A stretch of 64,000 nucleotides of DNA. It comes from Amphiscolops sp. MND2022. Taxonomy: Eukaryota. Positions 10,498 through 59,253 of this stretch are shown here, in pieces. The number at the start of each line of letters is the position of its first letter. Position 1 is the stretch's first letter. The stretch lies in NCBI GenBank assembly GCA_964187785.1, contig OZ076409.1:68884001-68948000 (forward strand), given 5' to 3'. Under the pieces are notes generated by a model. That model worked only from the letters and a program-made list of their open reading frames with translations, did no database searches and was not told the origin of the DNA. Both the position numbers and the translations under genes were made by a program.

Positions 10498-11526
10498 CTA
10501 GATTGTTTTAGGTAGTTCCTGAATTGAAAACATAAAAAGGCCGATCAAATAAATATTTAGAAGAAACGAAGTTGATTCGATTGGACATGTTTCATCCATG
10601 TGGGTCAAGGTGTGAAAAAGCTGCAAAATACTTTTCGAGATGACAAACAGATCTTCGAACAGCTCAAATTTCTCACTCTTGCCATCAAAAGTCATAGTGT
10701 TGGAGTTGACTGGGCGTATTGTGAGTTGTTGAGCTGTTGGTCTATTCTGCATTGTAGTCAAGACGTCGGCCAATCTGGTAATGGGATCAGGATCTGCAGC
10801 TGTAGCGATTCGCTCATGCGCTGGGATCATCGTGTCAAGGTTGATGTCCTCATAGGACTGATTGAGATGACTTCTTGATGGGATACGTCCTGTGAGAAAC
10901 TCAGGAACCTGATTTGGAGATTCGTTGTCTCCTGTCACCATGTCATGAACGTTCAATTCAGTGTAATCATTGTTTGACTGGTTCTCATCTTGTTCATTTC
11001 TCAAGTTATTCTTTGGGTTTAGATTTTGCTGAACTTCGGAAATTAGTTCCGGTCTCTCAGACGGAATGTCCCATCCCTTTCTGGTCCCGTGTCCTGATCC
11101 GGCCATTATAACATTTTGGATTTGAGGAAGCACCTGAGTACTTATCGCATCACTTATGGCTCTCTGTATTTGGACACTCACAGAATTCATCATCTCGTCC
11201 ATTTCTCGTGAAATGCGGGAATTTAATTCACTTAACAACCTGTTTATCTCAGCACTAGAGTTGCCTGTAACTGAATTGCGGTCACATTCGGTATTTGACC
11301 TAGAGTTAATATTTCTCTGGTTTCTACCTATGTTCCCATCCTCATTTTCGGATTCATTGCTGGCAAAGCTTCTAGATCTCCTGGGCAAATTGCTATTTAA
11401 ACTGCCTTCTCTTTCTCTCGTGTTAAAATGGTTCTCGCCTAGCATGATATCTAAATTCTCGATGTCAGATAACATTTCAAGTCCCCTTGACTTTCTTGCC
11501 TTCTTCTGTTTTCTAGTGGTTGGCAT
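10498..11526 (-). pseudogene. gag: Truncated gag copy starting in the 3' LTR and reading into flanking DNA
   Basis: Near-identical to the 24425-25861 protein up to ...KFELFEDLF, then unrelated sequence left of ~10645. Confidence 0.85.
10929..10940 (-). promoter_or_regulatory. Primer-binding site (second copy, downstream of the 3' LTR of element A)
   Basis: TGGTGACAGGAG directly abutting LTR end ...CATGACA. Confidence 0.8.
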
Positions 11527-12804
11527 TGAAACAGTTCCGAATTAAATAATGAATTAAACAACTCGGAAAAACAACAGCGGAGCCATTTGTAAGTCAATCT
11601 TTTCTAGTAGCGTCTCAAATGAATTGTGTCCCTTTCAGGCAAAGCACAGGTATTTATACTCCTGAGTGGGTGACACACATTTTCCACATGTTTCTAGTTA
11701 AGATTGGTATTTTGAGGAATGTAATGTACAACGTTTTGAAAGGTATTTAAGTTATTAAAGACCTCCAGTCACATACTTTACATATCATCGAATAGCATCA
11801 AAGCGCATATTTCAACAAAATCCCAATTTGGAGAATTCCTAACATATACATGTTTGTCATAACTGTAACATCAAACACTCAACATTCTGGTCGGCAAACA
11901 TATTGGTATTACAAGCAACATATTCATAGAAATATTATCTTTTCATTGTCAACAAATATCATCACGTGTTGATGGAATGCAAAACACGCATCATTGGTCT
12001 GTAATACTGACACGTGCCGCCATGCGGCTCTTAATCCGCACAGGGGAGGCAAGATCAAACAATACATGTTCAGTCATCGCACCATTGAAACAAAGCGTAC
12101 TCTAGTAAGGCCGAAATTGGCCAAATCCAAGTTAATAGTATAGCATCAAAGGAAGAAGGGTAAAAGGGCTTATTCGGCTTTTGATTAATACTTGGTTTAT
12201 TAAACCCACAAAGATCAACACTGGTGTTATTTAGCACTGAGTACACGTCCAGAGGGATTCCTGAATAATTTAACTAGCCATAAGTACAAATAATTCAGCG
12301 TTGACATATTTCACGAAGACGGCCGGAACCGGCCGTTTGACCAAGGCATAAAGTGAAGTGCGTCTATTCAGTCAATTGGCCTTACTCGGCCATTAACATA
12401 TCAGAGTTGTATTGAATTAGCAAATTGGAGCGTTGTGATTGGTCAGGACAGCGAGCTCAAGTGACGCTTTTGGATTAGCACTGTGCATCACTCGAACTCG
12501 TTTCCTATACCGCTTTACAGTTGCTTCTATTTACGTAGCTTTCAATCTGATAATTTATATTCTAACTGCACTTCAACACATAGTAACCCGATCTGGATAT
12601 TTCCAAATTGTACAATTTTAACAGACTAATACGTATACGTATATAAATGAGAAAACTTAACAACGTCAATAAATTGCAACATATTCAAAACAACAAAATA
12701 GTGTAAAAGTTTGTTTAATTGTTTTTTTGACTAATAAATGGGAAGCGTGCCGGAAGCTGTCTCCTGTCCTTGTGTAGTCGTCGCGATCCTGGCAGCCTGC
12801 GACA
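10941..12804 (-). repeat. Element A 3' LTR (1864 bp)
   Basis: Direct repeat of 25276-27153 with scattered substitutions and a 15-bp deletion; TGTC...GACA termini. Confidence 0.85.
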
Positions 12805-13540
12805 CTGCGGGTGCTAAGAAAAGTAAGCTACCGGCGTTAAGACCGTTTGAATAGGCTTCTTTCCGTAGGGCAGTGACGTACACGGGCTCACTTCTGGGCG
12901 TAGATCTCTCCATATACCAGTTGATCTTCTCTTGTTTTATCTCGTCGTTTGATTTACCGCAAACCTTGCAACTGTGACATCTCTGACGGCTTAGATCCGC
13001 ACACGGCAACACGTTTTGTATATGATAAGAAGCATGGAAACTGTCACTTACTGCTCGCGGCATAGGAGTGTCCAGTGATGGTCCCCTTTCGTGCTCAGGG
13101 GGAGACATAGGCGATTCTAAGATTGGTAGGACGGTGCTACATAGTTCAATCCTTGACTATTGCTTTTTGGAGGGCGCAAGGCACTTTTCCTTGTCAAAGT
13201 ATTTGACGCCTAGCTTGGGGGTAGAGGGAGGAATTGGCTGCGCGTTGCTAGGCCCCGCTTCCATCTCGTCCTCCAGTCCTTCGGTTGTCATTATTCGTCC
13301 TGCGATGAGTATCCGGCTTGATTTAACTTCCCTTTCGATCCTGTTGATCAGCGCTTCCGGATCCGTAGACCAGTCCGAGTCCCAATCACTGGATACCTCG
13401 TCCTCGCTGTCGCTGGAAATGTAAATTACGGAATCCGCCGATTCCTCAGAACTTTGTTCTTCGAAGTCGAAAAGTTTTTTTGATAAGTTAAATCTCCGCA
13501 TTAATTTTTTCTTTGCAAATTTGATTGATGCAAGAGGCAA
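12731..13540 (-). pseudogene. Extra sense ORF (ORF3, ~270 codons, one internal stop) at the env position of element A, ending inside the 3' LTR
   Basis: ORFs 13157-13540 and 12731-13108 are in the same frame, separated by one TAG. Acidic Ser/Asp-rich N-terminal part, Cys/His cluster (H..C...CHSCKVC). The C-terminal SQAA...GTLP motif recurs in the remnant at 38468-38554. Confidence 0.6.
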
Positions 13541-14383
13541 CTGGTTCAGTCAAAACTTTGAAGTAGAATGAAATCCCCAAATTCTAGAATTCAGTCGAGT
13601 CGAGCCTTTTGCCGGCATTTCATTTTAGCGGTCGAAACTTCGGTAAAACATCCTAATCCGGCATAAACATTCCTGAAAGGAATTTCATAATTGGTCGGCA
13701 GTCTTTGATAGTTTGATGTTTACCCCTCATCAATATCATCACTAGAAGAGGTGTGAATGACGCTCGAATCGTTAAGATCAACTGCAACAGTCTCAAGTGG
13801 GTAATTAACGGGCCGCTTGAAAACAATTAACGGCACGCGTCACTAAGACTTCTCAAAATGGCTTCAGCCAATCAGAGCCCAGCTTCGATAAATTGAAAAA
13901 TGAAGAATAAAATGACGTAAAATAATAATCCTGAATAATTCAAAATGGCGACAATTTCAACTGGGAGTAATTAGGATAATGGGAGATCCCGGCAAAATAA
14001 AACGGGGCAAACGGCCATAATCGGCCATTAAGAAAACAAACTGTAAATGATGAAGGTCTTTTGTACATTTCGCTGGCAGACTCCATGTACATTTTTAAAT
14101 ATGTAAATAATCATGTAATATTAGTCTGGTAATCGTCTTCAGCCACGAACTCCAACTTTCTGATTTTTTTTTACCCAATCTCAGTTCCAATTTAATTCCC
14201 TTTATATTCCAATTGTATTTTTACTTGGGCTCGCTTTGTTGACACCTGTTCTTCCTCATCTTCGACTCAGTTGCAGACTTTTCTCTGTTGGATTGTTCTT
14301 TTCCTTTCCTGTCGGATCCGGCCAATTTCCCAACTACTAGCAACCAGTCAATAATTTGTTCCCAACAGTTGACTCGTCACAGA

Positions 14384-17300
14384 ATGTCTTCTGCTGAAGG
14401 TTGGTTTGTTTCTGATTTGAACTTAATTTAACTTGATCAGGGCTAAATTTGTTCACAAAACGCTTCCTGTTTCCATCAATGAACATGTGCTAACACACTT
14501 TATTCAAGTTTTCAAGACACTTCCGGAAGTTTTCTAATGCGGTAAAATTGATTTCTTTCAAGGAAGCTCACCGCCAAATTTCATCTCTTTCTGTTTAGAG
14601 AATCAGAATGTAGACGAAGAACAAACTCCAACCAACACCAAAGAGAATATCCATGCACAGTCCGAACAAACATTGGACCAGTCTTCTGTCCTTGCTGCTA
14701 ATCTCGCTCACGATCCGATTCCGACTCCTTTCCCTCACGTCAGGTTTGTGACATTCCAAGACCAGAACATCACTGAATTCCCTCTCAGCACTGACAGTAA
14801 TGTGGATGTTACCGCTTACGCGACTGAGATGGTACAATGAATGGAGGCAAGCCAAGTTGCCAGAGCGCCATCGGTAGAGGAAACTGATGAAACCAGACCC
14901 GTTACATCTTCTTGCATGGAGGGCTTGTCTACCCCCACTCCTTGATCCTAGGAAAACTAGCACTCCGACGCAGACTGGTCGTAATCTGGGAGAGTCATCG
15001 AGTTTGTCCCAGCATGAGTCGCTCTTACAAATTGCTGTAACCACTTCCACTGAGTTCCCTGAACTGCCAGTTACTGCTACAACATCAGGAGGGGTTCCAG
15101 GTACCTCTCTCTTGCAAATAGAGGAAGACTCTTCATCAACAACCAGTGGTCCCCCCGTTACCAAAAGGGAAGGTTCGAGTAACCGAGGAGACTAGTGACG
15201 TCGATACTACTGGGGCGACATCTGGACTTGATGACTTTCCCCCCTTGTATGGAACGATTCCAGGTTGTTCAGAGCTCGAGTTCGAAAAAGGCACTGATAC
15301 TGAACTTGAGAATTACATCAACGACCCTCTTGGGACGTCAACAATGGGCACTCAACGACAGGAGGAACCACTAAGAGAGTTGTCTGGCCGCAGCAGGGCT
15401 ATTTTAAAATAGTATTTTGAGGCCGAAGACCGTTACACTTTCACTGTGGGTCACAGGACGGTAGCTTATACTGAGCCTCAGATCTACCACCTGTTGCGAG
15501 TCTTGACCGACGAGGCCATCAATATGACCTGTACGACCACGGAGCAAATGGTCATAGGGGCAGTGAGAGGAAAGCTTGCCACGGCTCCTTCGAGAATTGG
15601 GCAATTCAAGAGCCGAGCCCAGACTCCTAGACCCCATCAAGCAGGAAGTTCTAGTTCCGAAGGATTCCTCACCGATCCCGGACAGGATTCGGAGGCGAGT
15701 GGGGACTTTAGTGCACTGCTTGAAGTCGTGGTATATCAATCCAAGAGGATAGTGATAGTTCGGGAGAAATGGCTCTGGTAGCCGACAGTTTCAAAAGATC
15801 AACGATCGAGAACACCAGGCCCGCACAGCAATTGTTAGCACTACTCTAATCAGTTGGCAGAGGAGATGAGTCCACAGGACAAAGCAGTCTGGATAGTCTG
15901 GATGCGACATTGTCAGAACTACGAGAGCAACCTTCGACTCAAAACCCTCAAAGGAAAAGGTCCAGTAAGAAGGCCCGCAAACCCAAAACCACTCTGAGAC
16001 GAGGAGTACCCATGCGAGAAGAGTTCTTCTCCAAAATCGAATGAACTCGGTCCTTCATATCAGGCCCCGCAGATCCCCTTCATAATCCGCACATGGGCTG
16101 GTGCCACATGTGTAAAAAGAATTTTTCTGTGAAGACGAAAGGGTTGGTCGAAATTCTTAGGCACCATAGAACCGAAAAACACATCCGAAGGGACCAGCGT
16201 TGGCGCTACGAGCATCTCAGGAGCGTTGACCCCGTCACAGGAAAAATCCAACATAGGGTTAGAGTGAGGAATGGGAAGATCCTCAGTAAGGTTGAATTGG
16301 CACAGGAGCTTCCAAAGTTCATTCACACCGAACTCGTTGACGTAGAAGAAAAGTTCCCCTTCTATGAGGACTACCTCAAAGAAAGCACAACAGCCTTAGT
16401 AACTCCCCAGTCACGCTCTGAAACTCAAATTTGCCTCGTCGGGGACTTCATCCAAAGGCAGGGGGACTTAACCATCCTCCGGAATTTGTGGTCACGGGTC
16501 GGGTCCTTCACTGAATACCAGGTAGCCTTCCACGACTTTGATTGGAGCGAGGAGAGAATCACAGTAAGTATAATTCGTATGCCCTGTTTCCGGTTTTTAC
16601 TCACATGTTAACATATGAACTTGTATACTCACGCATATATGCACGTAAATAAACACATGGGAGCTAACATAGGTGAAATTGTTTTATGTTGTGAGTGACT
16701 CCATCCTGCATTTCAGGCTATATTCTAACAAATCTTCAACTGTGTCATGGAGGACATTGCTGAACAAGTGACTTCAGCACAGCATTTCTCCATCGAATTT
16801 GAGGACAGCGGGACAGATCGTCTGATGTTTTTGCGCTATTGGAGGGAAGCCAAACTCTGTAGGGTTTTCGTTTATCGTAGTGCACTTCCTGCTACTGACC
16901 TCACCGGCGAACTGGGATCCCTATCACGTTTGCTGTCGGTAGTGTCAACCGATCCCGACATAGTTGCTTGCTCAGGCTGCTCTGTGGACTACATTCGTAC
17001 CATTGACCAGCATCATTCCTACTCAAGAGGCATCCAGAGCTGCTTCCGATTTGAATCGCTTGATTTACAACTTCTGATGCACAAATTCACGTACAGTGTG
17101 TTTGGCCGAATTGACATGTTCTCCGTCCTCCAATGCCTCCTTGTTTCCCTAGGCGGGTCTCTCACGGAAGATTGGGTCCTGGAATCACCTGAACTCACTC
17201 GAGTTAGTGTATTTTGTTTCACTTGAATGGTAACACAGTATGGAGTGATAAGGACATGTAATGTGTGACACGTTTCGTAACATCATTGTATTTAGGCCAT

Positions 17301-18747
17301 AACCACCTGCAAATTGGAAGTGGATAAACTCCCAGATTTATGCCGGGATTTACTCAAGCGATGGAAGTCAGTCCTCCGATATCTGACTGTCCATTCCCGC
17401 CGACAGGAGAACCAAGGGGTGCACAACAAGGTCCAGCGCTTTGAGTGGTCCTTGATATCCGATGAGTTCTTCTCCGTCAGACTGGAATTCTTTCAGCGCC
17501 TCATCAACAACTGTGATTATGCTACGCTTCGGTATGCGTCGGTCACGTGTCCTGATATGGACTCTTTTGGTTTTGTGTTTCAGACGTCTCAAGTTTCACC
17601 GTCAATCTCTCTCATAGACGGGACGCTACCTTCTACCTCTGCGGGGAGGTTTGCAGATTCATCAGCCGGCTTTGCTTCCGGGTGTATCAGCCTGACACTG
17701 TCCCTCTCGAGAGTGCTTGGTTTCTCTTGCTGGATTTTCGGACTAGCGACGGGAAATTCATGAAAGATGACGAATTCTTGGTCAGACTCAAGATGACCAA
17801 CAAGGTGATTGCTGCTAGTAATCTGAAAGCCGCAGGATTACACTTCAACAAGAAGTCAAGTAAGGCTGTCATTGATAAGACGGCCGTCTCAGCCAAGTCC
17901 GACTTTATAACCAGTGCCAAGAAGTACGCCGAGCACCTACTCAGAGGTGTCCTCCAGCATACTGGTCTTAGCTCCGATATTGTCAAAGGGTTGGCAGCTT
18001 TTGACCCTTACATTATGATGAAACGGCCTACTGAGGTGGCTCTCCGCCACTTTGGCATCCTATATTCAACTTTCCAGTTGCGATCCTGGGTCACTGGGCC
18101 AAACGAGGCCGCGTGCAGGGACGAGTTTCTGGCATTGCTGGATTATATCCGAACTTACCATTCTTCCAACCCGAGCCTTACTAATGACTCAGCTGACCTC
18201 ATAGAGTTCCTTATGGAGCTTGATTTTCTCCAAACACATGAGCACCTCTGCCACATTTTCAAGTAAAGCTGTCTGTGTTTAACCTCTGGAAGTCCCCGAT
18301 ATCCAGTGTGGTGATGGGGAAGGTAGACACTCAAGGCCTTCAGTCTCGAATAGCCGATGTAGTTTTGCCTTGCCAAAGTTACTTATCTGAGGTTTCTGAC
18401 TCTCTGGCTTTCTGCTGTACTGATGTCAATCTTTAAAATCTCTCCCTGCTCTCCGCTTCATTCGGGCAGTCTGGACTCTGTTCCGACTATGATCCCTGGA
18501 CATATGTGGATAACTTCGGGCGTTCGTCCATTTACAAATCCTTTATGTCTTCTCATCGTTCCGTTCTTTCTGGGACAGGAACAAGTGCTAAGGATGTTAC
18601 TGCAGCTGACGTTCCTTCTGTGAGAGATGCTCCCGCTATTAGGCTGCCCAGCGACACCAAGCGAAGACGTATGGAAAGGAGCCAATCCCGGTCCAGGTGT
18701 CTTCTTCCGTAGTGATGGAGGCTACGACTAGCAACTCTAAAGACTAA
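14384..18747 (+). pseudogene. Antisense intron-containing accessory gene of element A: BED-type zinc finger plus hAT-transposase-like body (degenerate)
   Basis: Predicted GT-AG introns 14400-14598, 16564-16716, 17203-17295. Motifs WCHMC-x16-H-x5-H, FSIEFEDSGTDRLMFLRYW, RWKSVLRYL, LAAFDP. Several stops and frameshifts. Collinear with the gene at 45981-50259. Confidence 0.75.
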
Positions 18748-18967: not shown

Positions 18968-21900
18968 CTAGTATCTGAAGTCTTCTGAGTATTTTGGATT
19001 AGGATTAGGCCTCTGAGATTTCCCTCCTCTGGGGCTCAGACTTTCATTTCTGGCATTGTTTTCAGATATTTCGGGCACGATAATATCATCCCCCCTGTTA
19101 GGAGAATTTTGTGCATCGTTTTCAGTCGCTAGAGTTCTTTTTGAAAGTTTTTCATCATTTTTCAGTCCTTCGTCCGTATTCGGCGAAGATTTTTCTTGAG
19201 TTTTTTGGGAAACGGCCGGATTCGGCCAATCAAATTCTTGATTTCTAGTCGCTTCATTAGCTTCATTCCTTTTGGTGACGTCATCAGTTAATTGTTCATT
19301 CCGGCAGTAAGCCGTACGGTCAGCGTGATTTGATTCGTCTCTCGTGATTATGTAATCTACTTCATTCTCGTGTGCGTCATTTAGATTCAGTTGAGCCGCG
19401 CTCGGTCGTTCGCCATTCGGCAAGCTAGTCGGAATAGTATCGTGCCCTCGTGTAATCAGCTGCGCACCAAAGTCTGTTTCCCACGTTATGGTATATAAAT
19501 CGTCTTGCGGAATAACAATTTCTTCGTCAGGCTGCAGCGGCTGTTCTCGGAAATTGTCCTCAAGCGGTTGATTGGGGACAAACTTTTAAAGGCGAATCCG
19601 GTGCAGTATTTGAGTTTTGTTTGTATTAATTCGCCGTACGATATAACTTTCATTGGGCAAAACGTTTTGAACTCTGAATGGTCCAACCCAACGGTAATCT
19701 CGCAATGGAATTTTTGATCCTTGGTGATCCGCTTCCGGCTGTAAGACAACGCAGTAATCATTTTCCTTTAATGGAGCAGCTTTTGCCTTGCGGTCATAAT
19801 ACTCTTTGTACTTGATATACGACTGCATAAAATTCTGTTTTGTTTTGTCAATCAAGATTTTTGTTCGGTTTTGTATTTCTTCTGCAAATTCGGTTGTGGG
19901 ATTGATTTGCTCGTTTGGATTATTATCAAGCTTGTGATCCAAGATATTGTATGGAATCCATCCATGAAATACTCTCGTCGGTTCACAACCAATGCTGGCA
20001 TGGTAACTAGTATTATGATTTAGTACTGCTAATGGCAAGTGTTTGTGCCATTGTCGGCGGTTTTCTCCACATGCCATTTTGAGGTTTGTTTTCAGTGAGG
20101 CTTGAGGTTTGGGTTCGCTCTAATTTTCCAATAGTTTGCGGGTGCTTTGTCGTGGCGCATTTGAGTGTAATCCCCAAAATTTGTGTAATTTCCTCAACAA
20201 TTGTAGACGTAAATGCAGTACCTTTGTCAGTAATAAGTGTTGTCGGTAAATATGCATGTTTGGTCATGATGTTGATGAGCGCTTTTGCTACATTGATCGC
20301 TGATGCATCCGTAAGAGGATGGGCGAACAAATATCTAGAGAATACGTCAATTGCTGTTAGGACGTTTTCAAGCCCTCCGCTCGGGGGAAGATTCGGGAAT
20401 AGGTCGATTTGCATGGCGTCTTCATGTCCAAGGTCCCATTTGGCAAATTGAGCAGTTCAGGTGTAATTGTTGTGTTAGGGACTCTCTTGTCTCTGGCACA
20501 TTGTTCGCACCCGTCTACCCATCTTTTGACGTGCTTGGCCATGCTAGGGTAGTAATACCTCTGTCGGATTCCCTGCAACATTTTTGAGATACCATGATGT
20601 TTATGCGCTGTCCCATGGAGAGACTGAAGCAATTCCTGGAGTAAGTGCTGCGGGAGCAGAATTTGGTGGTATCTAACGTTCCCTGTTTCGTCAAAGTATT
20701 GCCTCGTCAGGATTTCGTCTTCAAGTACAATTCGTTCCAGGTTGTTTGCATAATGTCTGTATCGAGCATCCTGCTGCAGTAGATTCTCTGAATACTCTTC
20801 ATGAAGGAGTTTTGCCTTCAATTGTTGTAGTACTGCATCTTTGGATTGTTCGATAATGATTTGGTTAGTCTTCCTCAATCGGACTTGTATATCAGGGTGT
20901 TGCTTGACCAGATTTGTTGACAGAGTTTGTGTTGTAAAAGTGGGCTCATCAGGAGCTGGATTTTTCCTGATTGCTTCTTTCCTTGCCCAAAATTGTTCCT
21001 CTGTCTCATCGTCGTCATTGGTATAGAAGATTTGTTCTTCTTGTGACACCCCTGCGGATTGGACGTTTATTTCAATTGGTAACGTTTGTACATCTTCGCG
21101 AATCTTCATGACTAATTTGTCCATCGGGTCTGCTTCTAGACGGGACAAATAGTCAGCAGCCGTATTTTGTGCCCCTGGGATGTGCGGTACGACAAAATTG
21201 AACTGAATCACATAATCACACACATTCCACAGTGCTGGGGATATTATTTTCGTTTGAAAAAATTGTGTGACCGCTTTGTTATCTTTAAGGATAATGACCG
21301 GTTTCGGCGCACCCCAGAAGATATGCCCAAATTCTTTGAATACAAATTAAATTGCAAGGAATTCTTTGGCATAAATTGAGATCTTGATCTGTGCTGGGGT
21401 AAAGGTTTTTGATCTATATGCTACAGGGGCATAGGACTTTCTGAGTGACGTAAATTTTTGGCTTGGATCGTCTTCAATTAGGACCACGTACCCAGCTGCA
21501 CCAAAACTTGCATCAGTCATTAATGCACTTTGCTTGTTCGGGATAGGTCGTTGTAGGGCTAAGTCGCAACATTTGTCAAGTGCTTTATTGATTTCTTCGA
21601 ATTGCTGGACTAATTCTTTCGATATTAGGACTTTTTTGTCACTTTTCAGCATCTTCTGAAAGACTCGGGACATAATTTCTGTAGTAGTTCAGGAATCCCA
21701 AATAGCGTTGTAGAGCCATTTTCGATTTTGGGAATTTGGTTTTTTCTAAAAAGTGTTGTACATTCTGCTTTTGGGGTTTGACGCCTTGCGGGGTTCTCGT
21801 TCGTCCGGGGAAATCAATTTCTTTTGCACCGAAGTAACATTTGTGCATTGTCAACTTAAAGCCTGCTTCCTGAATGCATTTGAATGTTACTCTCAGGTTA

Positions 21901-24160
21901 GCTATGAGGTGATCAGCATCATTAGTTGCAATGCCGATATCACCCACGTACTGGGCACATTGGTCCGCTTTGATGACTTTATCAAGGTATTCCCTCATAA
22001 AGCTCGAAAATGCGGACAGAGCCCGGCTAAGGCCTTGTGCCAAGCGTCTGTATGCAAATGTGCGACTGGCAAAGTTAAAGGCCATTATTTCAATCGATCG
22101 TTGGTCAGCCATCGGCAGGCAGTGGTAAGTCAGTGAACAGTCTAATTTACAGAACAGTTTTTTGCCTGCTAAGTGTTGGGCGGCGTCGACTAAGGTACTG
22201 ACTGGGTGATTATTGTTTATATAATCATCCGATTTGAGGTTGTTGATTTTTCTCAAGTCAACCAAGAGTCTGAGTTTTCCGTTCTGTTTCTTTTGTGCGA
22301 ATATTGGACTCGCATATTTCGAGAATGGTAGTGTGGTGATTATGCCATATTTGTGTAACATGGCCAATTCGACCAGGATGTCTTCCTTCAGGTTGATAGG
22401 GGCTGGGAGGCTCTAGCTATAGGCTGGGGAGTCGTCCTTAGGTGTCAATTTCACCTTGAATTCCTCATTCATGCCTATATCAAATCTGTGTCGTGCAAAT
22501 ATATCATGAAATTCCACTAGTAATTCTTCGATCTTCTTTTCTTCAGGAGCAAGAGTGGAAGCTTTCCAATCAAAGTTTTCTACGAATTTTGTACGAGATT
22601 CTTCATCCTTGGTGGGGTCGAGTGTCTCCAGGTCTTGTAGGGTCTGTAATTCACGTAGAATTCGTTTCTGGATAGGCGTGTGTTCCTCGGGGTTCCCAGG
22701 GTTTTCTGGAGTTGGGAACCAGTAATTTTCAGAATTTTTGAAGATTTTTATTCATCTTGATGAGGCTGCTGACATAATGGGCTGCCTGTTCTTGGTCGTT
22801 TTGCAAAAAGTGCCAGGTTGATGCCGGGTCTACCGGTTTGACGTACTTCATTTGTTCTGGCGTCATGACGGAGAAATTAGCAATGTGAATTCCCTTTTTG
22901 AGCTTGTAAGGGTGGTCTGTGAAATTGTTCACTGGTATCAATATATTGCCATCATTCAGAGTGACCAAGGCTGGGCAAAATGTGATGTCCCCTTCTTCAT
23001 GTCAGAGGTCACTTGGTTGTAAAATGCCAGTCACAGCATTTTCAGGATAAAGTAAGGAATTGGTCCTAATTAGGACTCTGTCATTGGGTGGAATGGTTTT
23101 CTCAGTTGGATTGAGGATTGGTTCTAAGACATTTGAATATTTATCAGTTGTTTTGAGCTGCATTGAAAAAAACGGAAAGTTCAGAATTCCTTGTCTCATG
23201 TCCAGAACTGTATGGTTTCTTTGTAGGAACATCAGTCCAATAATCGGTCCTGTCAAGTGTTCCATTACTATGAAAATTTCATGGAATTCAATGTCACCAA
23301 CTTCGAATTTGAGCTCAATGGTACTCTTGGGAGTTTCCAGTTGCCCATTAGCGACCATGATTTGGAAGTTCGGGGGCGGACCTTCCCGGATGACTGATTG
23401 TGGAGATAGAAGGCGGATTTTCCGGAGGTCCATTTCAGGAATTGCACTGGACAGTGCTCCTGTGTCGATGAGTCCATCAATGGTCAAATCCCCAAAGTCC
23501 ATTGGGAAATAAAGCATGCGTTTCTTGCATTTGAGATTAATGTTGGTTGACAGGGGTATACAGTCTGGTTCACCATCTTTGGTTATGAGTACATTCTGGA
23601 ATTGTTTCTCGTCTAATAGTGATTGTGGTATGGATTCAGCAGTATTTTCAGGATTCTCAGTCCCCAGGGGATTTGGGAACACTGGGTGGTTTGTACCATC
23701 GTTCATTTGCCAATTTTCAATTAGTGCCCGTGTTTTCTTGTTGTGGGTAATTGGAGGGTTCTCGTGGACTGTTTTGTTGTAGTGTTCAATGTCGTCTAGA
23801 ACATACTGGAAAAGCAATAGGTCCTGGTTATAAATCTCGGTGTCCCAAAAGGATCTCTGCCATAGTCTGGGTCGATGTATGTTGGATTGTAATCATCGAT
23901 CAGGATAATGGGCCTAAACCGGGTAGTGAAGGTGGTTGTATAGTCAAGGTCCCAAACAGGAATTGGTTTCTGGAACTAATGGGTGTTATTATAGGTAATA
24001 ATGGTGGCTTTTTCCATCTGTTGCTGCCAGACAACGGAGGGATAGCCCATCAATTGTTGTTGGAAATTGTGAAAGTTTCTAGTTGGTTGGAGGGTCCGCT
24101 TTGATGTATTGGCGAACGGATACTAGTTCATTGTATTGGAGTCGTGGCGAAGTTAGTTTT
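18968..24160 (-). pseudogene. pol: pol polyprotein of element A (protease, RT, RNase H, integrase), fragmented
   Basis: LIDTGA protease; RT LRLLVDLRKIN...QYVGD (YVDD mutated); RNase H TDAS; integrase HHCC (LHGTAHKHHG...CEQC), IDL/TDKG/ER, WVGPF; split across many frames. Confidence 0.92.
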
Positions 24161-25861
24161 TTGACTCATCATTAGAAGATGAGGATTGGGAGCTTGATGG
24201 TGTCGGTTTGGTCTGAGGTTTCTGAGCTTTTGAATTGGGTTTATTGTCATTTGAGTCCTCGGGCCTAGTGAGTTTGGGTTTAAGATGCGCACCTGCACCT
24301 TGCCAACATCTTTCCTCCGGGTGGTTTTTTTTGCCACAAGTGCCACACTCCGGGTATGTTTTCTTCTGAGTCGATTTGCCTTGTTGGGCATCTTTCTCTT
24401 TTTTTTTCAATTTTTCGCAGTCCTTTACCATGTGCCCTTTTCCTTGCAGTAATTGCAAGTGATGTCCGACATTTGCCCAGTGGTCAGAGGGGTTTTGGGC
24501 TTAGCAGATGAGGAAGTCATTGTTGCCATCGGTAGGTCGTCTGACTCCTCAAGGGCGTTAAGCTCCAGTTCTCTCTCCAAATGAGCAACTTTTTCGTCAT
24601 ATGAGCCGTTTTTTAGTCTGGCCATTTTGATTGACCTTTTCAGTTTTGGTGGCAGTTTTGCGTACAGGAGACTGTCAATCATTTTCTGTGCGTGGTCTCC
24701 GAACGCCTTCTCGGCGCCTTGATTTAGTTCTTCAAGGAAATCAGGCAGCTCCATCGTATTAGGATCAAATACCAGACGGTGCCATTTATGTTTGGCGGTC
24801 GCCTGTGACTCAGGTTTGACGTATTTTCGTCGGAAAATGACTAGTACGTCTTCAAGGGTTTGCCGATTTGTCGAATTGATGTTTCTGAACGTCTGCAGAG
24901 CATTTTTCTTCAATAGTGAATGAAAATGTTTAATTTTCATCTGTTCGGTCATTTCTGGCTGCATCTTGATCATAGTGTGGAAAAGATCTTCGAACAGCTC
25001 AAATTTCTCACTTTTGCCATCAAAAGTCATAGTGTTGGAGTTGACTGGGCGTATTGTGAGTTGTTGAGCTGTTGGTCTATTCTGCATTGTAGTCAAGACG
25101 TCGGCCAATCTGGTAATGGGATCAGGATCTGCAGCTGTAGCGATTCGCTCATGCGCTGGGATCATCATGTCAAGGTTGATGTCCTCATAGGACTGATTGA
25201 GATGACTTCTTGATGGGATACGTCCTGTGAGAAACTCAGGAACCTGATTTGGAGATTCGTTGTCTCCTGTCACCATGTCATGAACGTTCAATTCAGTGTA
25301 ATCATTGTTTGACTGGTTCTCATCTTGTTCATTTCTCAAATTGTTCTTTGGGTTTAGATTTTGCTGAACTTCGGAAATTAGTTCCGGTCTCTCAGACGGA
25401 ATGTCCCATCCCTTTCTGGTCCCGTGTCCTGATCCGGCCATTATAACATTTTGGATTTGAGGAAGCACCTGAGTACTTATCGCATCACTTATGGCTCTCT
25501 GTATTTGGACACTCACAGAATTCATCATCTCGTCCATTTCTCGTGAAATGCGGGATTTTAATTCACTTGACAACCTGTTTATCTCAGCACTAGAGTTGCC
25601 TGTAACTGAATTGCGGTCACAATCGGTATTTGACCTAGAGTTAATATTTCTCTTGTTTCTACCTATGTTCCCATCCTCATTTTCGGATTCATTGCTTGCA
25701 AAGCTTCTAGATCTCCTGGGCAAATTTCTATTTAAACTGCCTTCTCTTTCTCTCGTGTTAAAATGGTTCTCGCCTAGCATGATATCTAAATTCTCGATGT
25801 CAGATAACATTTCAAGTCCCCTTGACTTTCTTGCCTTCTTCTGTTTTCTAGTGGTTGGCAT
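24153..25861 (-). pseudogene. gag: gag of element A (frameshift near 24440)
   Basis: Capsid-like region (FDGKSEKFELFEDLF...), zinc knuckles CNYC..GH..DC (split by the frameshift) and CGTCGKKNHPEERC; ends SKN* over AAAAAAC. Confidence 0.9.
25264..25275 (-). promoter_or_regulatory. Primer-binding site of element A
   Basis: TGGTGACAGGAG, complementary to a tRNA 3' end ...CUCCUGUCACCA (Leu-like by inference), directly after LTR. Confidence 0.85.
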
Positions 25862-27153
25862 TGAAACAGTTCCGAATTAAATAATGAAATAAACAACTCG
25901 CAAAAAACAACAGCGGAGCCGTTTGTAAGTCAATCTTTTCTAGTAGCGTCTCAAATGAATTGTGTCCCTTTCAGGCAAAGCACAGGTATTTATACTCCTG
26001 AGTGGGTGACACTCACATTTTCCACATGTTTCTAGTTGAGATTAGTATTTTGAGGAATGTAATGTACAACGTTTTGAAAAGTATTTAAGTTATTAAAGAC
26101 CTCCAGTCACATACTTTACATATCATCGAATAGCATCAAAGCGCATATTTTAACAAAATAACAATTGGGAGAATTCCTAACATATACATGTATGTCATAA
26201 CTGTAACATCAAACACTCAACATTCTGGTCGGCAAACATATCGGTATTACAAGCAACATATTCATGGAAATATTATCATTTCATTGTCAACAAATATCAT
26301 CAAGTGTTGATGGAATGCGAAACACGCATCATTGGTCTGTCATACTGACATGTGCCGACATGCGGCTGCTAATCCGCACAGGGGGAGGCAAGATCAAACA
26401 ATACATGTTCAGTCATCGCACCATTGAAACAAAGCGTACTCTAGTAAAGCCGAAAATGGCCAAATCCAAGTTAATAGTATAGCATCAAAGGAAGAGGGGT
26501 AAAAGCCTTATTCGGTTTTTGATCAATACTTGGTTTATTAAACCCACAAAGATCAACACTGGTGTTATTTAGCACTGAGTACACGTCCAGAGGGATTCCT
26601 GATTAATTTAACTAGCCATAAGTACAAATAACTCAGCGTTGACATATTTCACCAAGACGGCCGGAACCGGCCGTTTGACCAAGGCATAAAGTGAAGTGCG
26701 TCTATTCAGTCAATTGGCCTTACTCGGCCATTAACATATCAGAGTATTGAATTTGTAAATTGGAGCGTTGTGATTGGTCAGGACAGCGAGCTCAAGTGAC
26801 GCTTTTGGATTAGCACTGTGCATCACTCGAACTCACTTCCTTTACCGCTTTACAGTTGCTTCTATTCACGTAGCTTTCAATCTGATAATTTACATTCTAA
26901 CTGCACTTCAACACATAGTAACCCGATCTGGATTTTTCCAAATCGTATAATTTTAACAGACTAATACGTATACAAATATAAATGAGAAAACTTAAAAACG
27001 TCAATAAATGCAACAAATTCAAAACAACAAAATAGTGTAAAAGTTTGTTTAATTGTTCTTTTGACTAATAAATGGGAAGCGTGCCGGAAGCTGTCTCCTG
27101 TCCCTGTGTAGTCGTCGTGATCCTGGTGCCATCGCAGGCGGCAGCCTGCGACA
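25276..27153 (-). repeat. Element A 5' LTR (1878 bp)
   Basis: TGTCGC...CATGACA on minus strand; followed by PBS; homology to the other LTR stops exactly at 27153. Confidence 0.85.
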
Positions 27154-28275: not shown

Positions 28276-28413
28276 TTGAGGAAAATATGAAAGAAGGACA
28301 CTTGAGCCTCTCTTCTATTATTTTAGTTCCCAGGCTACTTCACATCGGCCAATCTGTCCGTTTCATCACATTGGCGTCTCTTGAAAAAAGAAGCAACTCT
28401 AAAAGTATGGCGA

Positions 28414-44053: not shown

Positions 44054-45154
44054 TGTCGGAACGACTGTCAGTACTAGTAGTTACTGGATTCAGTCTATTC
44101 CCTTCTCCATTAACGGAGGCAAACTGGTTGGTTAGCGTGAGGACTATGTTTGTAAGGTCTCCGATTTGCCTATTTATCTCGTTAAATCTTCGGTCAATGT
44201 CGTAATTACTACTATTTTGACGTCTAGTTAAAACGTCATCAGAGTCAAGGTCTACCATTTGTTCTCTAGACAAGAGTTCAGGGAAGCTGGTTTCACTTTC
44301 ATTATCACTAGTTCTATCCATGTTCTCAGTATCAATCTGTCTATTTCGACTACTTTGAGATCTGGTGATTACCATGAAAAGTCTGAAGTTTTAAGTTGAA
44401 TTGAAGTATTTTAATGTTATAACAACTATTGATGACTGGTAAGCAAGGTAGTAAGCAACCGGTTATATCAATGGTCACAATTCGTTAATGAGTTCGGTTT
44501 TACCCGACCGTGTCACTATCAAGGTGTGTTAGCACCTTTTCTCTTTCAGCCAATAACATTCGACTTGCTAATTACTATTTAATTGCACTTGACGACTGGT
44601 GGTTCCAGTCATGACGGGTGATGATCGGCGTTTAATTGTTCGTGTTTGATTTAGTATGACCGCAAGCACCAGTCATTTTAGCACTTAATTGTCTCAATTG
44701 CTCTTTAAACTGAGGCTTCACTACCGCGTGTTCTTATCATCATGGTGACTGATTCGATTATCGTTTGGAGGATAATTACTGCAGGACATTGTACAAATTG
44801 CTAATATGAATGAACGAAATGATTGAATATTCTGGTAATACTTTACATGTAATATAAAAAATGGATAAAGAACGGTTAAACGATGCACTATCACTGTGGA
44901 TGATGACTGATTGTTTCAGTCGTAAATATGGAAATGATTGAATATTTCAGTTTTAGCTTTTAAACGATGCACCATAACATAAACGAAATTTGGTATTGAT
45001 GACTGCTAGTTTCAGTCGTCGTATAGCCAACTGTGATATTTAGCTAATAAATTACTGCAATGTATTTACATGATGATCTATATTTTAGGGAGTTTGATGT
45101 AAGAACTAATGTTTTAGAGTTTATTTCATTTCTTCATGCTTGGCGGGCATGACA
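44054..45154 (-). repeat. Element B 3' LTR
   Basis: No differences from 58153-59253 seen by eye; preceded by PPT on the minus strand. Confidence 0.95.
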
Positions 45155-47195: not shown

Positions 47196-50100
47196 GAAGT
47201 TTTACGTGTGGTGTTGTGTGTTTTAGCAGGTCGGAAGCGTGCTGTTAAGACTCTCAAGCCTTCGTTTTTTGTGTCTGGGGTAGTGGGGACCTTCGTTGGT
47301 TTCCCCCGGAACAAACGGGTGGTCGATGGTTATGCAAGATGTCGTCTGTGCCGCGTCGATCTCAGTATTGCCGGACGTGGTCTGCACAACTTGTGGGACC
47401 ATTGGAAGGGACGTGAGCACACCCGGCTTGAGCAGCGTTTTCGGATCATGTCCAATATGCCTTTGTTGGACAAGTCCTGCAGGCCTGTGTCCTTGGAGGA
47501 GGATAGGAGGATTCGCGCCGCGAGAGTATCAGAGCCGCCTGTCATCCTAGAATCTGATGTGAAACTGACAGTGGAGGAGAGAATGGCGATAGAGCGCGAG
47601 GAGGAGGCTGCAGGAGCTAAGCCCGAGTTATCGGAGTCTAGTGCTTCGTACCTCTGGCTCTGTTGTTTCATAAGCAATTTCGTCGAGCTTCAAACGTTTC
47701 CGAGTGTGGTCCGAGCCATGGAGTCATGGGTCAGCAGTATGCGGGGAGAGCTGGTGTTCGCTGAGAGGGCGCTATCTTACCCGAAATGTCAGGTAATACC
47801 TTTTTTATCATTTTGTCTTTTTTTTTTTTTTTGTTTGAAGTTGCTATTGGTATGCCTGTGTCTCGTGGTGTTTGTACGTAGTTGGATAATGGGTTTGTCT
47901 TATTTTGAACAAAATATGCTTTACTATGTGGTGAGTGACATGGTTTTCGTTTTGTTGCAGAGTCTCGTGTTATACGGTCTCTATCCGTTCGTTGTCGAGA
48001 AAGTCAGTGATCTTCTCTCTTCTGGGGTGCGGTTTGGCTTACATGTCCGCACTGATGGGCCATTGAAGCGTGTGGACTGTCACATCTTCGCCTCTGTGAC
48101 TATCAAGGTTGTGGTTCTGGTTGCGATTCCTGGTGGCGCTGAGTGGGAACAAACCCTGCTGAGGATTCTTGTCTCCGTTCTGGCTTGTGTGGAGTCGCAT
48201 GCTGGTTTATGTGCGATTAGCGTAGGCGAGAATCTGCGTCTTGGGCGGGCATTGGCGAGCATTGCACATCCGATCATGCCTGTAGTGACTCGTCGTCTGG
48301 ATGTGGTCTGGTTGAGGGACTTGCTTCGCCGTACTTTCCTGCAGCACTTGAGTGGACTTGAACCCTTCTGCGTTTTGGAATATTTTCGGTTCCGGCTTTC
48401 TGCAGTCATCGGAGAGTCATCCTTCGACAATATGCCCAGACTTCGAGAGGTAATTCAAGCAGTATTTAGTCATTCTGGTTGGGGGTGGGTTGGTCTGGTG
48501 TGTATGTGTTTTCCTCGTTTGTGATGACTGGTACGCTTGGGTGTGGAGGCTTTTAGTCATGCACTGTATATAATTTTATGCTGTTTTGTTTTAGTTCGTT
48601 CGTGGTGGTGCTGCATGTTTCCGGGAGTTAGCAGTTCTGTGCACGGAAATTGTGGATCGGTGGGACGATCTCGGGGCATACTTTGGTGGTCACCGTTCGC
48701 AGACAGTTTCTGAGACCCGCAATATTGCAAGTATGGAGACGCAGGTCTTCAGTGATGCCATGTCCAGGCCGCGGTTCGCAGTGTTGAAGTTTCTCGCTGA
48801 GACAGGTCAGTATAAATGCTGTGCTTATTTCTGTGTCCGAGTACATCCACTCTATGGTTATTTTTCCTTTCTGCTATGTGGTTGATGAGTGGATTGTGAG
48901 GGAGTTAGGACGTTCGGGCTGGTAGGGTGTGTTGTTGAGTGTTTCAACATGTTGGTCAGGGATCATCTGTATGTTTCAGTTGTTGCCAAGTGTCCCCGTT
49001 TGTGTTCTGCTGGGCGGGATCGGAACCTATGGTTTGAGCGTGAGCTGGCTGCTTTCCTTCGGGAGTTATTGTCTCTAGTGGTCGAGTCTGCAACAATACC
49101 ACCCGATTTCGAGGTACTTGCCGTACTGAAGATGCGACTGGGAGAGAGTGAGCCAGTGAACAAAGCCCGATTTGAAGTGTTGTTTGGTCAGTACTTCCGG
49201 TTCGACGTTGTCAGTCAAAAGTCGTTCTTCTACAAAGAAGTACAAAATTTCCTGAGGGCTATCTGTGAAATGTGCATCTGCGACTATGATCAGGGGTGGG
49301 TGAAGCATCTGAGCTTATTGCCGTTGGATCCTCATGCGATTCAGCTGATGTCCATGGATCGATTGACGGACATACTCGTGGGTACGCTCTCGGTGTTAAG
49401 CTTCGGTGATCTTTGCAGTGGAGACCAGGGGGCCATCGTCATTCAACAATATCGGGAAGTGGTCACCTATTTTCAGCGCCGTTGGGAGTCCAGTGTCTCG
49501 GGGGTGCCGGTCATTGACGACGCCGTGTCCTTGTGGTTGTCATACCCTTCGTGGGACCGGTGCCAGGAATTCCAGGGCATAATGGAGATTCTGTTTGTGG
49601 GGATGCTTCATGACCCATATGTCGCCAATTTCCAGGATGTGGGAAACACTGCTCTTAGTGATGGCATCATGTTGTCCAGTCTTCACATAGTTCGGAGCTG
49701 GATGTCAAGTGGGTTTAGTGGGCATTCACGCCGCTCTATGATTGGATTTGTCAGGCACTGCAATAATACTGACATGCAGGTTTCTCGTCTGTCCGATGTA
49801 GCAAGGGCTATTCCCTGGGACCAGCTGGTCAAGAGGGGTATTGATGAACTACTGGATCGCTGCCTGGGTGTTCTGGAATCGACTGGTGGTCTCCCAGCTC
49901 GTCCTGTTGTCGACAATTATAGGTCTATAGTGTGTGATCAGTTGCGCACAATGGATTCGAGCCCAATTGCTCTTCATCGGAGTCCTGGGCGAGCAAGGCT
50001 TTCTGTGTCGCAAGCGCCTAAGTTGCAGGCTGAAGTCGTGTTACCAACAGAGGGCCCGAGTACTTCAGCTTCAAAACGTAAATCTGCCTGTAAGACGTCT

Positions 50101-50259
50101 GGAAGCAATCGTGGTCAGAGAACGGGAGGGAAACCAGGCAAGAAAGGAAAACGTACATTAGCTACTGTTGAAACTGAACCTGAGTCGGCTGGCGGGCGTT
50201 CTTTCACGTTAGAGGAGAGCAGTGATGAGGAAGATGGTAGTCGTTCCAAAGAGTATTAG
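45981..50259 (+). CDS. Antisense 7-exon accessory gene of element B, ~1092 aa: BED-type zinc finger plus inactive hAT-transposase-like protein
   Basis: Predicted exons 45981-46209, 46349-46486, 46705-47073, 47230-47792, 47961-48449, 48595-48805, 48980-50259. All introns GT-AG with T-rich acceptors and compatible phases; total 3279 nt, no internal stop. Motifs CRLC-x16-H-x5-H, RWDDLGAYF, LPLDP; basic NLS-like tail (KPGKKGKR). Confidence 0.8.
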
Positions 50260-52142: not shown

Positions 52143-55100
52143 TTATAGGTTTCTGTTTTTCAGAAGCAGCTGTTGAAGCGAAGGCGTTCCATGTAATTCG
52201 TGCATTAGGAAATCGGGGTACGTGGTAGGTTTTGGGTTGTGTCTGAGCCCGTATCGAGACATGGTGTTTCGCGATGTCGCTGGAGGGCAGTCGTTTGTTT
52301 GGCGTTCGGAATTGTTCATGCTAACATTATCCGGTTGTGGTTCTTGTGTTTCAGCTCGGCTTTCAGGTATGGAAATGTTTTGATCAGGTTCTAGGCTATG
52401 GCGTTCATAGTATATCATTCCATGGTCAGCATGTAGTTCTTCGAAGTCCGATTGTTCAGGTATTGCTTGTTGTGGTTGTTCGTGGACGTGATCGGGTAGG
52501 TGGTTGTCGAACAACTCCTGCTCGTTGAGGGCGTCAGGATCCTCATAGTATTGTGATGTATCGTCTTGAATGTCTTCAATTGGTGCGTTTGGTGTAAATG
52601 GGCGGAGCCTCATTCTGTGGACGCATTGGGTGCGAAGAGTTCCAATCTTACGTATAATGTAATTTGAATTGGACAAGACTTTTACCACTTTGTACGGGCC
52701 TTCCCACTTGAATTCCTTGAAAGGAATTTTGTCAGATTGTTGAGACAGTCTTTTGTTTAGCAGAAAGGTGAAATCATTTACTTTCAGAGGTGAAGCTTGC
52801 GCTTTTCGGTCGTAGTAATTCTTGTATTTGTGGAAGGCTTCGATTATGTTGTCATGTGTTTGTTGGAATTTTTTGTTCATGTTATCTAGTATTCCAGTGA
52901 CGTCAGTGGTGTTGCGTTGTTCAGTTAATGGATGGCCAAATTTGACGTCAAGAGCATTGAACGGAATGCGTCCGTGGAAAACTTCAGTGGGTGTGCATCG
53001 GATAGCCTGGTGGTAGGTTGTGTTATGGGCCATCACGGCCATGTTTACGTATTTGTGCCATTGTGGTGAATCGGCTGAGACGTTGATTTTGAGAATTTGT
53101 TTTAGTTTTTGGTGTGAACGTTCAACCATCCCAATCGTTTGTGCGTGCTTTACAGAGGCGTGTTCGATTTTTATACCGGCAGACTCCATCAGAGCGGTGA
53201 GTAGTTGAGATGTGAATGTCGTTCCTTTGTCAGTTAAGATTGTTTTGGGTACATACGAGTGCTGCGTGAAGATTTGCATGAGTGCTTCGACGACCGACTT
53301 CGTGTCCGGTTTACGGATTGGTATTGCGGAGAGGTACCTAGAAAAGTAGTCGCATGCAGTGAGGATGTGTGTGAATCCGTTGGAAGGTGGGAGTTCACCG
53401 ACTAAATCGATTTCTAGTATGTCTTCTGGTCCGTTGCAGGGGTCGTATATTTGTTGGAGTGGTGGTGTGATTTCAGCTTTCCGGATTGGTTTTGAGCGGA
53501 TGCAGTCCTGGCAGTTCGAGACGTATTGCAGTACCAGTTCAGAGAGGTTTGGTGAGTAGTACCTTTTACGCAGTTCGTGGAGCATTTTGTTACAGCCAGG
53601 GTGACCTTGCAGAGGGTCATCATGCAGGGATTGAATGATTTTCCGAATGGTTTCAGAGGGGGTGACAATTTGTTTACACTTAATTTTACCTGTACCATCG
53701 AAAAAGTTCCTGTACAAAACGTTGTTCACTACTTCAAGTCTTTTCTTGTTTTTAACTAGTTTTTGGAAAAACTGACTTTCAAAGTTCACATGATTAGGAA
53801 GGGTTTCCTTTTGGTTCAAAATTCTAATCATGCGTTGGATGTCAAGGTTTACGGCTTGGTCCTGGATGATTTGAAACTCCCCATTGGGGCATACCTGGTT
53901 TACCACGTTGTCATGAAGCTTTCGCCTGAATCGGGTGAACGTCATCTCGTCATGCTGCCCTGTGATGATGGGTGTGATCTGATGACGGATGGTTTCAATC
54001 CTCTCGCGAAACTGTCCACTCGATTCGTCACTGCATATGGGGACCTGGTCCAGTATGGCGTTGATGGCTTCATTTTGTTTGGTGGTGGTGGTTTGTTGGT
54101 CATCAGGTATGTATTCTTCTTCTTCTTCGTCCTGCTTCGGTGTTCGTGACGCCAGATCGATCTCGACGTGGAAGACTGGTATCTCGTCGTTGAGTTTGAG
54201 GTGGATTCTCTCCTCCGGTCGTATGTCTAGACGAGACAGGTAGTCTGCAGCAGGATTCTCGGTTCCGGGAACATGGGCAAGTACGAATTCAAATTGAAGC
54301 GTCTGATCGCAGTAATTCCATAGCTTCGGTGGAATTCGTTTGGACTGGAAGAAACGGGTTAGTGCTTTATTGTCCGTCATTACGATTGTTGGTTTCTTGA
54401 CACCCCAGAGTATGTGTGCAAATTCGTCGAATGCAAAATGCATTGCCAGGAATTCTTTTGCATACATAGTAAGTGACATTTGGCCCTCCGTGAATCGTTG
54501 GGATCCAAATGATACTGGTGCGTACGTCTTCATTGGTCCGTCGTTAGTTTCGGTGTAGTCTTCTATCAGGAGGACATATCCTGCCGCATGCTCGCTGGCG
54601 TCACACATTATAACAAGCTGTTTATCGGGTAACGGCAGACGCAGCGAAAGTTTCGCGGCTTTGGCAAGGTTTTCATTAATCTCGAAGATAATGTCCTTTT
54701 GCTGCTGGGTCAGCTGGAATTTGACGTCTTTTTGAAGTAGTTTGTACAGTGGGGTGAGTTTTTCTGCTAGGCGTGGTATGTACTGCCTGTAGAACTGGAC
54801 GAACCCGATGTACCTTTGGAGGGATTTGACTGATGTGGGCAATTTGATCTTCTTGAGGAAGTTGTCTATCTTGTCTTCGAGTGGGGCAACACCCTTTGAT
54901 GTGATGCTTCTTCCGAGGAAGTCGATCTGTGGGTGGCCAAACGCACATTTTGACATCGACAATTTCAGTCCTGCTTTTTGGATTTGTTGGAACACAGCTT
55001 CAATGTTTGACAGTAGCTCATCTACAGTGTGGGCAGCAATCCCAATGTCGTCGACATATTGGGCACATTTATCCGCTTTCACCAGTGCGTCGACGTATTC

Positions 55101-58474: not shown

Positions 58475-59253
58475 GAAAAGTCTGAAGTTTTAAGTTGAAT
58501 TGAAGTATTTTAATGTTATAACAACTATTGATGACTGGTAAGCAAGGTAGTAAGCAACCGGTTATATCAATGGTCACAATTCGTTAATGAGTTCGGTTTT
58601 ACCCGACCGTGTCACTATCAAGGTGTGTTAGCACCTTTTCTCTTTCAGCCAATAACATTCGACTTGCTAATTACTATTTAATTGCACTTGACGACTGGTG
58701 GTTCCAGTCATGACGGGTGATGATCGGCGTTTAATTGTTCGTGTTTGATTTAGTATGACCGCAAGCACCAGTCATTTTAGCACTTAATTGTCTCAATTGC
58801 TCTTTAAACTGAGGCTTCACTACCGCGTGTTCTTATCATCATGGTGACTGATTCGATTATCGTTTGGAGGATAATTACTGCAGGACATTGTACAAATTGC
58901 TAATATGAATGAACGAAATGATTGAATATTCTGGTAATACTTTACATGTAATATAAAAAATGGATAAAGAACGGTTAAACGATGCACTATCACTGTGGAT
59001 GATGACTGATTGTTTCAGTCGTAAATATGGAAATGATTGAATATTTCAGTTTTAGCTTTTAAACGATGCACCATAACATAAACGAAATTTGGTATTGATG
59101 ACTGCTAGTTTCAGTCGTCGTATAGCCAACTGTGATATTTAGCTAATAAATTACTGCAATGTATTTACATGATGATCTATATTTTAGGGAGTTTGATGTA
59201 AGAACTAATGTTTTAGAGTTTATTTCATTTCTTCATGCTTGGCGGGCATGACA
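58153..59253 (-). repeat. Element B 5' LTR
   Basis: 1101-bp direct repeat of 44054-45154, followed by PBS. Confidence 0.95.

Follow-up and report, generated by a model that had tools for sequence, protein, structure and literature searches.

We examined a 64-kb window of the Amphiscolops sp. MND2022 genome (positions 68884001-68948000 of contig C1, OZ076409.1), together with the 1.07 Gb of genome searched for related copies. In this window, which is the whole stretch analysed and to which coordinates refer unless a locus is named, we find two Ty3/gypsy long terminal repeat (LTR) retrotransposons, A and B, both on the minus strand, and in each of them a spliced gene sits in antisense between pol and the 3' LTR. 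Element B is intact, with 5' and 3' LTRs of 1.1 kb that are 100% identical, a 5-bp target-site duplication, a primer-binding site and open gag and pol, the Pfam domains of pol following the order protease, reverse transcriptase, RNase H and integrase (PR-RT-RH-IN). Element A is decayed and lies within a tandem arrangement. Over RT-RH-IN, the two clades that A and B represent are ~50% identical. The features are as follows.

10941..12804, minus strand: 3' LTR of element A, common to the tandem partial copy that follows
12805..13549, minus strand: second extra open reading frame (ORF) of clade A, sense to the element, reading into the 3' LTR; broken in the window
14384..14399, plus strand: first coding exon of the A antisense gene, ATG at 14384, phase-1 intron after it; same micro-exon in L019 and L027
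14599..16563, plus strand: A exon with a long acidic/Ser-Pro-rich region, then a C-x2-C-x16-H-x5-H finger; decayed in the window copy
16717..17202, plus strand: A middle exon, 486 bp, predicted helix and three strands; one stop in the window copy
17296..17512, plus strand: A exon with the RW helix, ending at a phase-1 intron
17584..18747, plus strand: A last exon, stop codon 18745-18747; stops and frame breaks in the window copy
18968..25876, minus strand: gag-pol of element A, decayed
25276..27153, minus strand: 5' LTR of element A, primer-binding site 25266-25275
44054..45154, minus strand: 3' LTR of element B
45981-46209, 46349-46486 and 46705-47073, plus strand: B exons 1-3; same exons in L030, L034 and L036
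47230..47792, plus strand: B zinc-finger exon
47961..48449, plus strand: B middle exon, 489 bp
48595..48805, plus strand: B RW exon, ending at a phase-1 intron
48980..50259, plus strand: B last exon
52143-56954, minus strand: pol of element B, intact, PR-RT-RH-IN (gag and pol together span 52143..58489)
56936-58489, minus strand: gag of element B, intact, its frame opening inside the LTR
58153..59253, minus strand: 5' LTR of element B, primer-binding site 58143-58152

The model of the antisense gene in element B has seven exons, is open over 1092 amino acids (aa) and shows GT..AG at 6/6 introns. The A copy in the window has seven stops in its spliced core, and the related copy L019 gives a protein of 1278 aa. 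The first-pass annotation of the window had proposed that these are the same gene in two divergent families, and profile-profile comparison bears this out, with E values of 1.4e-9 for 10 A against 9 B copies, 8.8e-12 over 565 columns at 16% identity for 27 against 9 copies, and 9.8e-14 with 25 added relatives, against 0.04-0.51 for seven controls (reversed B, pol and five block-shuffles of B). The protein profiles exclude L020, L023 and the window A copy, which have frame breaks or many stops, and L072, L075 and L076 are without a model. No TBLASTN cross match between A and B was obtained at E 1e-3. The identical finger spacing, C-x2-C-x16-H-x5-H, is confirmed, as are the middle exons of 486 and 489 bp in their coordinates, GT/AG ends and phase 0 on both sides. 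Three introns are common to A and B; of the two placed at equivalent sites by the first-pass annotation the second matches exactly, but the first lies one codon apart, and a third one of phase 1 (A 17513-17583, B 48806-48979), which had been overlooked, also aligns exactly. The chance of two exact intron matches is ~2e-5. A late PW motif, previously listed as shared, is not homologous, as the alignments do not pair DPW of A with IPW of B.

Elements of a third clade, C, carry an antisense gene with the same finger, the same three introns (phases 0, 0 and 1) and a 486-bp middle exon, and profile comparison links it to A (E 8e-11) and to B (E 2.5e-16), pairwise identity among the three proteins being 15-21%. 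That the A, B and C accessory proteins are homologous, representing one ancient, selected, spliced gene, is well supported. Basic runs resembling nuclear localisation signals lie near the C-terminus of both the A and B proteins, and the best 19-residue hydropathy is 1.5 in A and 2.1 in B, the latter within the strand region. An env-like gene, which would be in sense and have a signal peptide and a transmembrane anchor, was considered and rejected on the antisense orientation and these hydropathy values. The LTRs of the two elements, described at first as unrelated, indeed give no blastn match to each other, but they have TGTC...GACA ends and the primer-binding site in common.

Among 25 pairs of antisense genes, the ratio of nonsynonymous to synonymous substitution (dN/dS) was 0.04-0.08 in the five with measurable dS, the other 20 being saturated, which argues that the gene is maintained as a protein and is not fast-evolving by drift. 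It nevertheless varies much more than pol does: the identities of pol and accessory protein are ~96% and 55-70% among the families of subclade A1, 78% and 37% between A subclades, and 50% and 15% between A and B. The deep clades obtain 100% support in both the pol tree and the accessory tree, but within clades the two trees reject each other (approximately unbiased (AU) test, p-values 2e-8 and 2e-29; 20 elements, 2000 replicates, L018, L028, L084, L085, L078 and L083 left aside). For instance, L021 and L068 are 99% identical in pol and 57% in the accessory gene, and window element B and L032 are 99% and 72% identical, respectively. The U3 region varies independently of the gene, one U3 type being found with widely differing genes and vice versa; the two do not co-segregate, and the idea that they strictly co-evolve is not supported. 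Given the full support of the deep clades in both trees, the conflict within clades and the independent U3, vertical inheritance holds only between clades; within them it is modular, and gene, pol and LTR reassort. Of the interpretation first proposed, ancient capture and long vertical maintenance, a common origin and long maintenance under selection are supported by the homology, the three introns in three clades, the dN/dS values and the deep clades, but maintenance that is vertical throughout is too simple a picture, as the pol and accessory trees both recover the deep clades and conflict inside them.

In the reverse transcriptase (RT) tree, a single clade (100%) unites A, B, C and an env-type element, which joins A weakly (62%), and the unrooted integrase tree also places it with A (99%); A+B+C as a single clade is not rejected (p-AU 0.365). 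This env-type element (L127, C1:2366268-2372767) has the same primer-binding site and an env-like sense ORF, and the antisense gene is absent from the stretch seen. Part of L127 is duplicated in tandem.

L024-L028 and all 17 newly modelled A loci have a fourth intron, located in the RW exon. L017-L023 and window A are precisely without it, and those of these A loci that are in the accessory tree form one clade there; the intron is missing from B and C as well. The phase-1 intron is absent in L069-L071, and the second intron also in L070. Antisense introns survive retrotransposition because the genomic RNA of the element is the other strand and stays unspliced with respect to them. Since they are not removed from genomic RNA, their precise loss would most simply reflect recombination with reverse-transcribed, spliced antisense RNA. 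For the fourth intron, a gain in the A ancestor is as possible as a loss in B and C. Precise losses in separate lineages imply spliced transcripts, and they are the sole, indirect basis on which we infer that the gene is expressed as spliced antisense transcripts.

Genome searches with single exons gave 935 first-look candidates for B and 5,941 for A; scoring covered 141 and 150 of them, respectively. Pol lies tail-to-tail with the gene in 17/20 loci of one set, L033-L035 being without pol, and in 20/20 loci of a second set; these loci were picked from hits across the identity range, mostly with open frames, and are biased to young copies. In the B-type loci L033 and L035, the antisense gene is followed downstream by a second, inverted fragment of itself that carries an internal deletion. 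LTR pairs were found in 20/20 extended loci, 97.7-100% alike, with the primer-binding site visible in 15/20. The primer-binding site occurs 3,538 times in the genome (control 4). When every fifth of the first 100 listed sites was taken as a less biased sample (n=20, all on contig C1), the gene was present at 15/20, comprising 10 of A type, three of B type and two of type C, whereas the other five comprised an A-type remnant cut before the finger, an env-like sense ORF in place of the gene, and three sites with nothing recognisable. If this proportion holds for all 3,538 sites, the genome would contain ~2,600 gene copies, a rough extrapolation from one contig. The gene was not found within 2.3-3.7 kb after pol in five other gypsy families, a range that could miss a C-like layout. 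Long, probably env-like sense ORFs follow pol in other gypsy families (L151:99-2513, minus strand; L152:3967-6300, plus strand), and in an unrelated one two antisense ORFs do so (L153:3925-5079 and 5687-6301, minus strand), one with an internal 7-residue repeat; these two may belong to an adjacent host gene or to an accessory gene of another kind.

Outside this genome, a profile of the A last exon matched 551 unnamed proteins at E<=0.001. Four of them were compared with the genome; two have close copies in it (89% and 97%) and two do not (best 31% and 41%), so that the gene family probably occurs in other genomes. The B last exon had no match among 7,640 candidate longer proteins, a sequence search of PDB for a named relative returned nothing significant, and the B finger and middle exons gave no usable match in the ESM Atlas. 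Among 235 and 10 pattern matches in metagenome and viral contigs, respectively, there was no confirmed relative, and cluster look-ups of 20 relatives produced no informative names.

The second extra ORF of clade A is conserved; it was found in 14/14 A copies examined, between the antisense start and the 3' LTR, encoding ~240-270 aa in intact copies (for example L086:1904-2686, minus strand). It reads through the position of the purine tract and 29-30 codons into the LTR, has no Pfam match, and no counterpart was seen in B. From the coordinates, it and the antisense gene start head-to-head, ~0.8-1.3 kb apart. In subclade A1, a pyrimidine-rich stretch under coding constraint takes the place of the purine tract ahead of the LTR, despite near-identical LTRs, and in L079 and L082 of subclade A3 a trinucleotide microsatellite lies between the head-to-head genes, upstream of the antisense start.

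Further observations concern the host elements and their surroundings. The gag frames of both A (24425-25876, minus strand) and B (56936-58489, minus strand) start inside the LTR and run through the primer-binding site. Tandem elements sharing one LTR are seen in the window (10646-12792 against 24981-27126) and in L021 and L074, and matches ~14.1-14.6 kb apart recur in the genome searches. A 2.7-kb duplication (25679-28417 / 28414-31154) includes part of the A 5' LTR. The window also holds a single-frame rhodopsin-family G protein-coupled receptor gene (36444-37565, minus strand; Pfam 7tm_1, E 1e-9) and a dispersed repeat with ~120-bp units in both orientations (3579-6065, 33159-33323 and 40538-41058), probably a non-autonomous element.

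Regarding the origin of the antisense gene, its finger, predicted helix with three strands, RW helix and helical C-terminal half come in an order like that of the hAT transposase Hermes (PDB 8edg/8sjd/4d1q). Two predicted models of nearly separate parts, the middle exon and the C-terminal half, each have Hermes as their top PDB match, with weak scores; the model of the A middle exon looks like the start of an RNase H-type core, the helical part of the A last exon resembles the C-terminal half of Hermes, and the first helix and the strands can be aligned to hAT motifs without forcing. Several results weigh against this relationship. Both structural scores fall in the tools' inconclusive range, the middle-exon model is poor (predicted local distance difference test, pLDDT, 53), Foldseek did not find Hermes with the C-half model, nor was it among the VIA matches of the middle-exon model. 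The accessory profile matched 49 hAT proteins of DUF4371/P52rIPK type only as well as controls did (E 0.38), no exon matched Pfam Dimer_Tnp_hAT, and the A and B profiles matched none of the ORFs of 29 genomic hAT loci. Pfam searches of the exons and of 89 alignment members returned no hAT family, and the finger reached E 0.12 against zf-BED, below the cut-off. A DUF4371 search of the genome itself found nothing, but its control was silent too. The hAT origin implied in the first-pass annotation thus has the fold on its side but not the sequence profile; we regard it as likely, supported but not proven.

The alternative that the protein is not hAT-derived, the Hermes matches reflecting common helical and three-strand arrangements, would have to explain why two nearly separate models, correctly ordered after a zinc finger, share one protein as their top match, and why hAT motifs align so easily; we consider it unlikely. 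The gene is not a working transposon, since its catalytic residues are not conserved and terminal inverted repeats were not found. Aligned to P0276 and P0321, the positions we take to be catalytic show the first Asp lost in A, B and C, the second Asp kept only in C, and CxxH absent in all three, while the Glu could not be placed; around the gene, no inverted repeat was shared in seven elements, three of which had scattered, unshared 11-13-mers, and no separate search for 8-bp duplications was made. An ordinary nested hAT transposon, or an active transposase that offers the element another means of moving, would fit the hAT-like fold, the many hAT transposases of the genome and the second Asp of clade C, but it is largely refuted by these losses and by a position fixed across clades with ~50% pol identity. 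A multi-copy hAT C-terminal fragment in L056, L057, L064 and L065 was rejected as a copy of the antisense gene, being a separate, small, decayed hAT piece within a >9-kb multi-copy unit that also has integrase remnants and a repeat-rich ORF. Independent capture of related genes by A, B and C appears very unlikely: the identity of only 15-21% and the placement of the env-type element with A would suit it, yet place, strand and three introns are the same, a single A+B+C clade is not rejected, and the five other gypsy families, examined within 2.3-3.7 kb after pol, did not show the gene.

With moderate confidence, we favour the explanation that a domesticated, catalytically dead hAT-type protein serves the elements as a DNA-binding accessory factor. 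The homology, the exon structure, purifying selection, the linkage to elements and the exchange of modules are established. The captured gene would have lost its catalytic residues, kept the zinc finger and overall fold, and then been retained as an exchangeable accessory module in three deep clades. A promoter close to the 3' LTR would most likely drive antisense transcription, which in clade A would be head-to-head with the second ORF, and the transcript would be spliced; the protein, most likely binding DNA in the nucleus through its finger and bearing an acidic low-complexity N-terminus, would promote or protect expression of the element as an activator or anti-silencing factor. Expression, nuclear location, DNA binding and a regulatory role have about even odds. 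Three further points count against this explanation: the lack of co-segregation with U3 speaks against a protein that strictly recognises a U3 site particular to its family, no target sequence was identified, and the env-type element, where the gene is missing from the stretch seen, suggests that the replication machinery of the group may not need it. The same dead protein could instead act on element cDNA or the integration complex (nuclear entry, end binding or tethering to target chromatin) rather than on transcription, a role raised for plant antisense ORFs in the available part of PMC7264820 and compatible with the transposase fold and conserved finger, the basic C-terminal runs, the lack of a link to U3 type and the TGTC and GACA ends of both clades. 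A protein that partners integrase would, however, be expected to evolve together with pol, whereas pols that are 99% identical are found with proteins of 57-72% identity, and we hold this reading to be rather improbable. Less probable still, the elements could have captured a host regulatory gene of domesticated-hAT type (a ZNF862/ZBED-like gene) and employ it against a host silencing factor, as decoy or dominant-negative. Its many short introns, unlike the long single-frame hAT ORFs of the same genome, and old divergent variants on homogeneous pol backgrounds, as expected of host-parasite conflict, would be consistent with this, and such an origin is reported for VANC (PMC13547354, in part). 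No host counterpart was found, however, the loci examined lying in LTR elements or their remnants, among whose copies a single-copy gene could be missed, and the empty DUF4371 search is uninformative.

Antisense ORFs between pol and the 3' LTR are known in plant and fungal gypsy elements, where the available part of a review (PMC7264820) gives their function and origin as unknown and describes no similarity to other transposons; the ORFs of Retand TRP28 are predicted DNA binders (PMC11963269, in part). Maize Grande gene23, rice RIRE2, Silene Retand TRP28 and Botrytis Boty resemble the present gene in place and strand, in conservation and in presence in most copies, and the Grande protein is nuclear with its own promoter (PMC7264820 and PMC11963269, both in part). 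In contrast to them, the present gene has an animal host, multiple exons (1092 aa in B, 1278 aa in the A copy) with introns conserved and precisely lost, and a hAT-like fold; the word 'intron' does not occur in the available part of the Retand paper (PMC11963269). The gene agrees with the antisense additional ORFs of LTR elements (aORF-3R) in occurrence (15/20 sites and one remnant) and in protein conservation (dN/dS 0.04-0.08). From hAT transposases (Hermes; DUF4371/P52rIPK type), which it resembles in the order from finger to C-half and in the top structural match of two models, it differs in the lost catalytic Asp and CxxH, the lack of terminal inverted repeats and of a Pfam hAT match, the long extra N-terminus and movement only within an LTR element. 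HBZ of human T-cell leukaemia virus type 1 (HTLV-1) is a small bZIP protein overlapping viral genes, whereas the present gene is separate and transposase-sized. The likeness to HBZ and other retroviral antisense proteins would lie in an antisense gene expressed from the 3' end of a retroelement and in a product that acts as a nuclear regulator. Such proteins are mentioned in PMC11963269. VANC of the Mutator-like VANDAL elements is a functional analogue, an accessory protein that an element carries, that stems from another chromatin or transposon protein and that diversifies rapidly among families, but element class and fold differ, anti-silencing is demonstrated for VANC and conjectural here, and no cognate target repeats were found here (PMC13547354, in part). 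Full-text literature searches returned no paper on an antisense gene of hAT derivation in an LTR element of an animal; their coverage leaves out most subscription journals and Repbase reports, so that a prior description is possible.

More speculatively, and as a tentative possibility, one gypsy radiation may have turned a DNA transposase into a domesticated, sequence-specific factor for anti-silencing or licensing, whose many ancient variants would be swappable cassettes on near-identical pol, with env as the alternative, paired head-to-head in clade A with a second small protein, and whose spliced antisense RNA would be reverse-transcribed often enough to strip introns. If so, the gene would amount to a naturally occurring retrotransposition-indicator cassette and would serve as a model for intron loss through RT. 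The review (PMC7264820) finds no support for deriving antisense extra genes from another transposon; the present case, found in an animal and in large numbers, points to just such a derivation. With young intact copies, numerous natural variants on one and the same pol and dated intron losses, the system allows function, module exchange and RT-driven intron loss to be tested directly.
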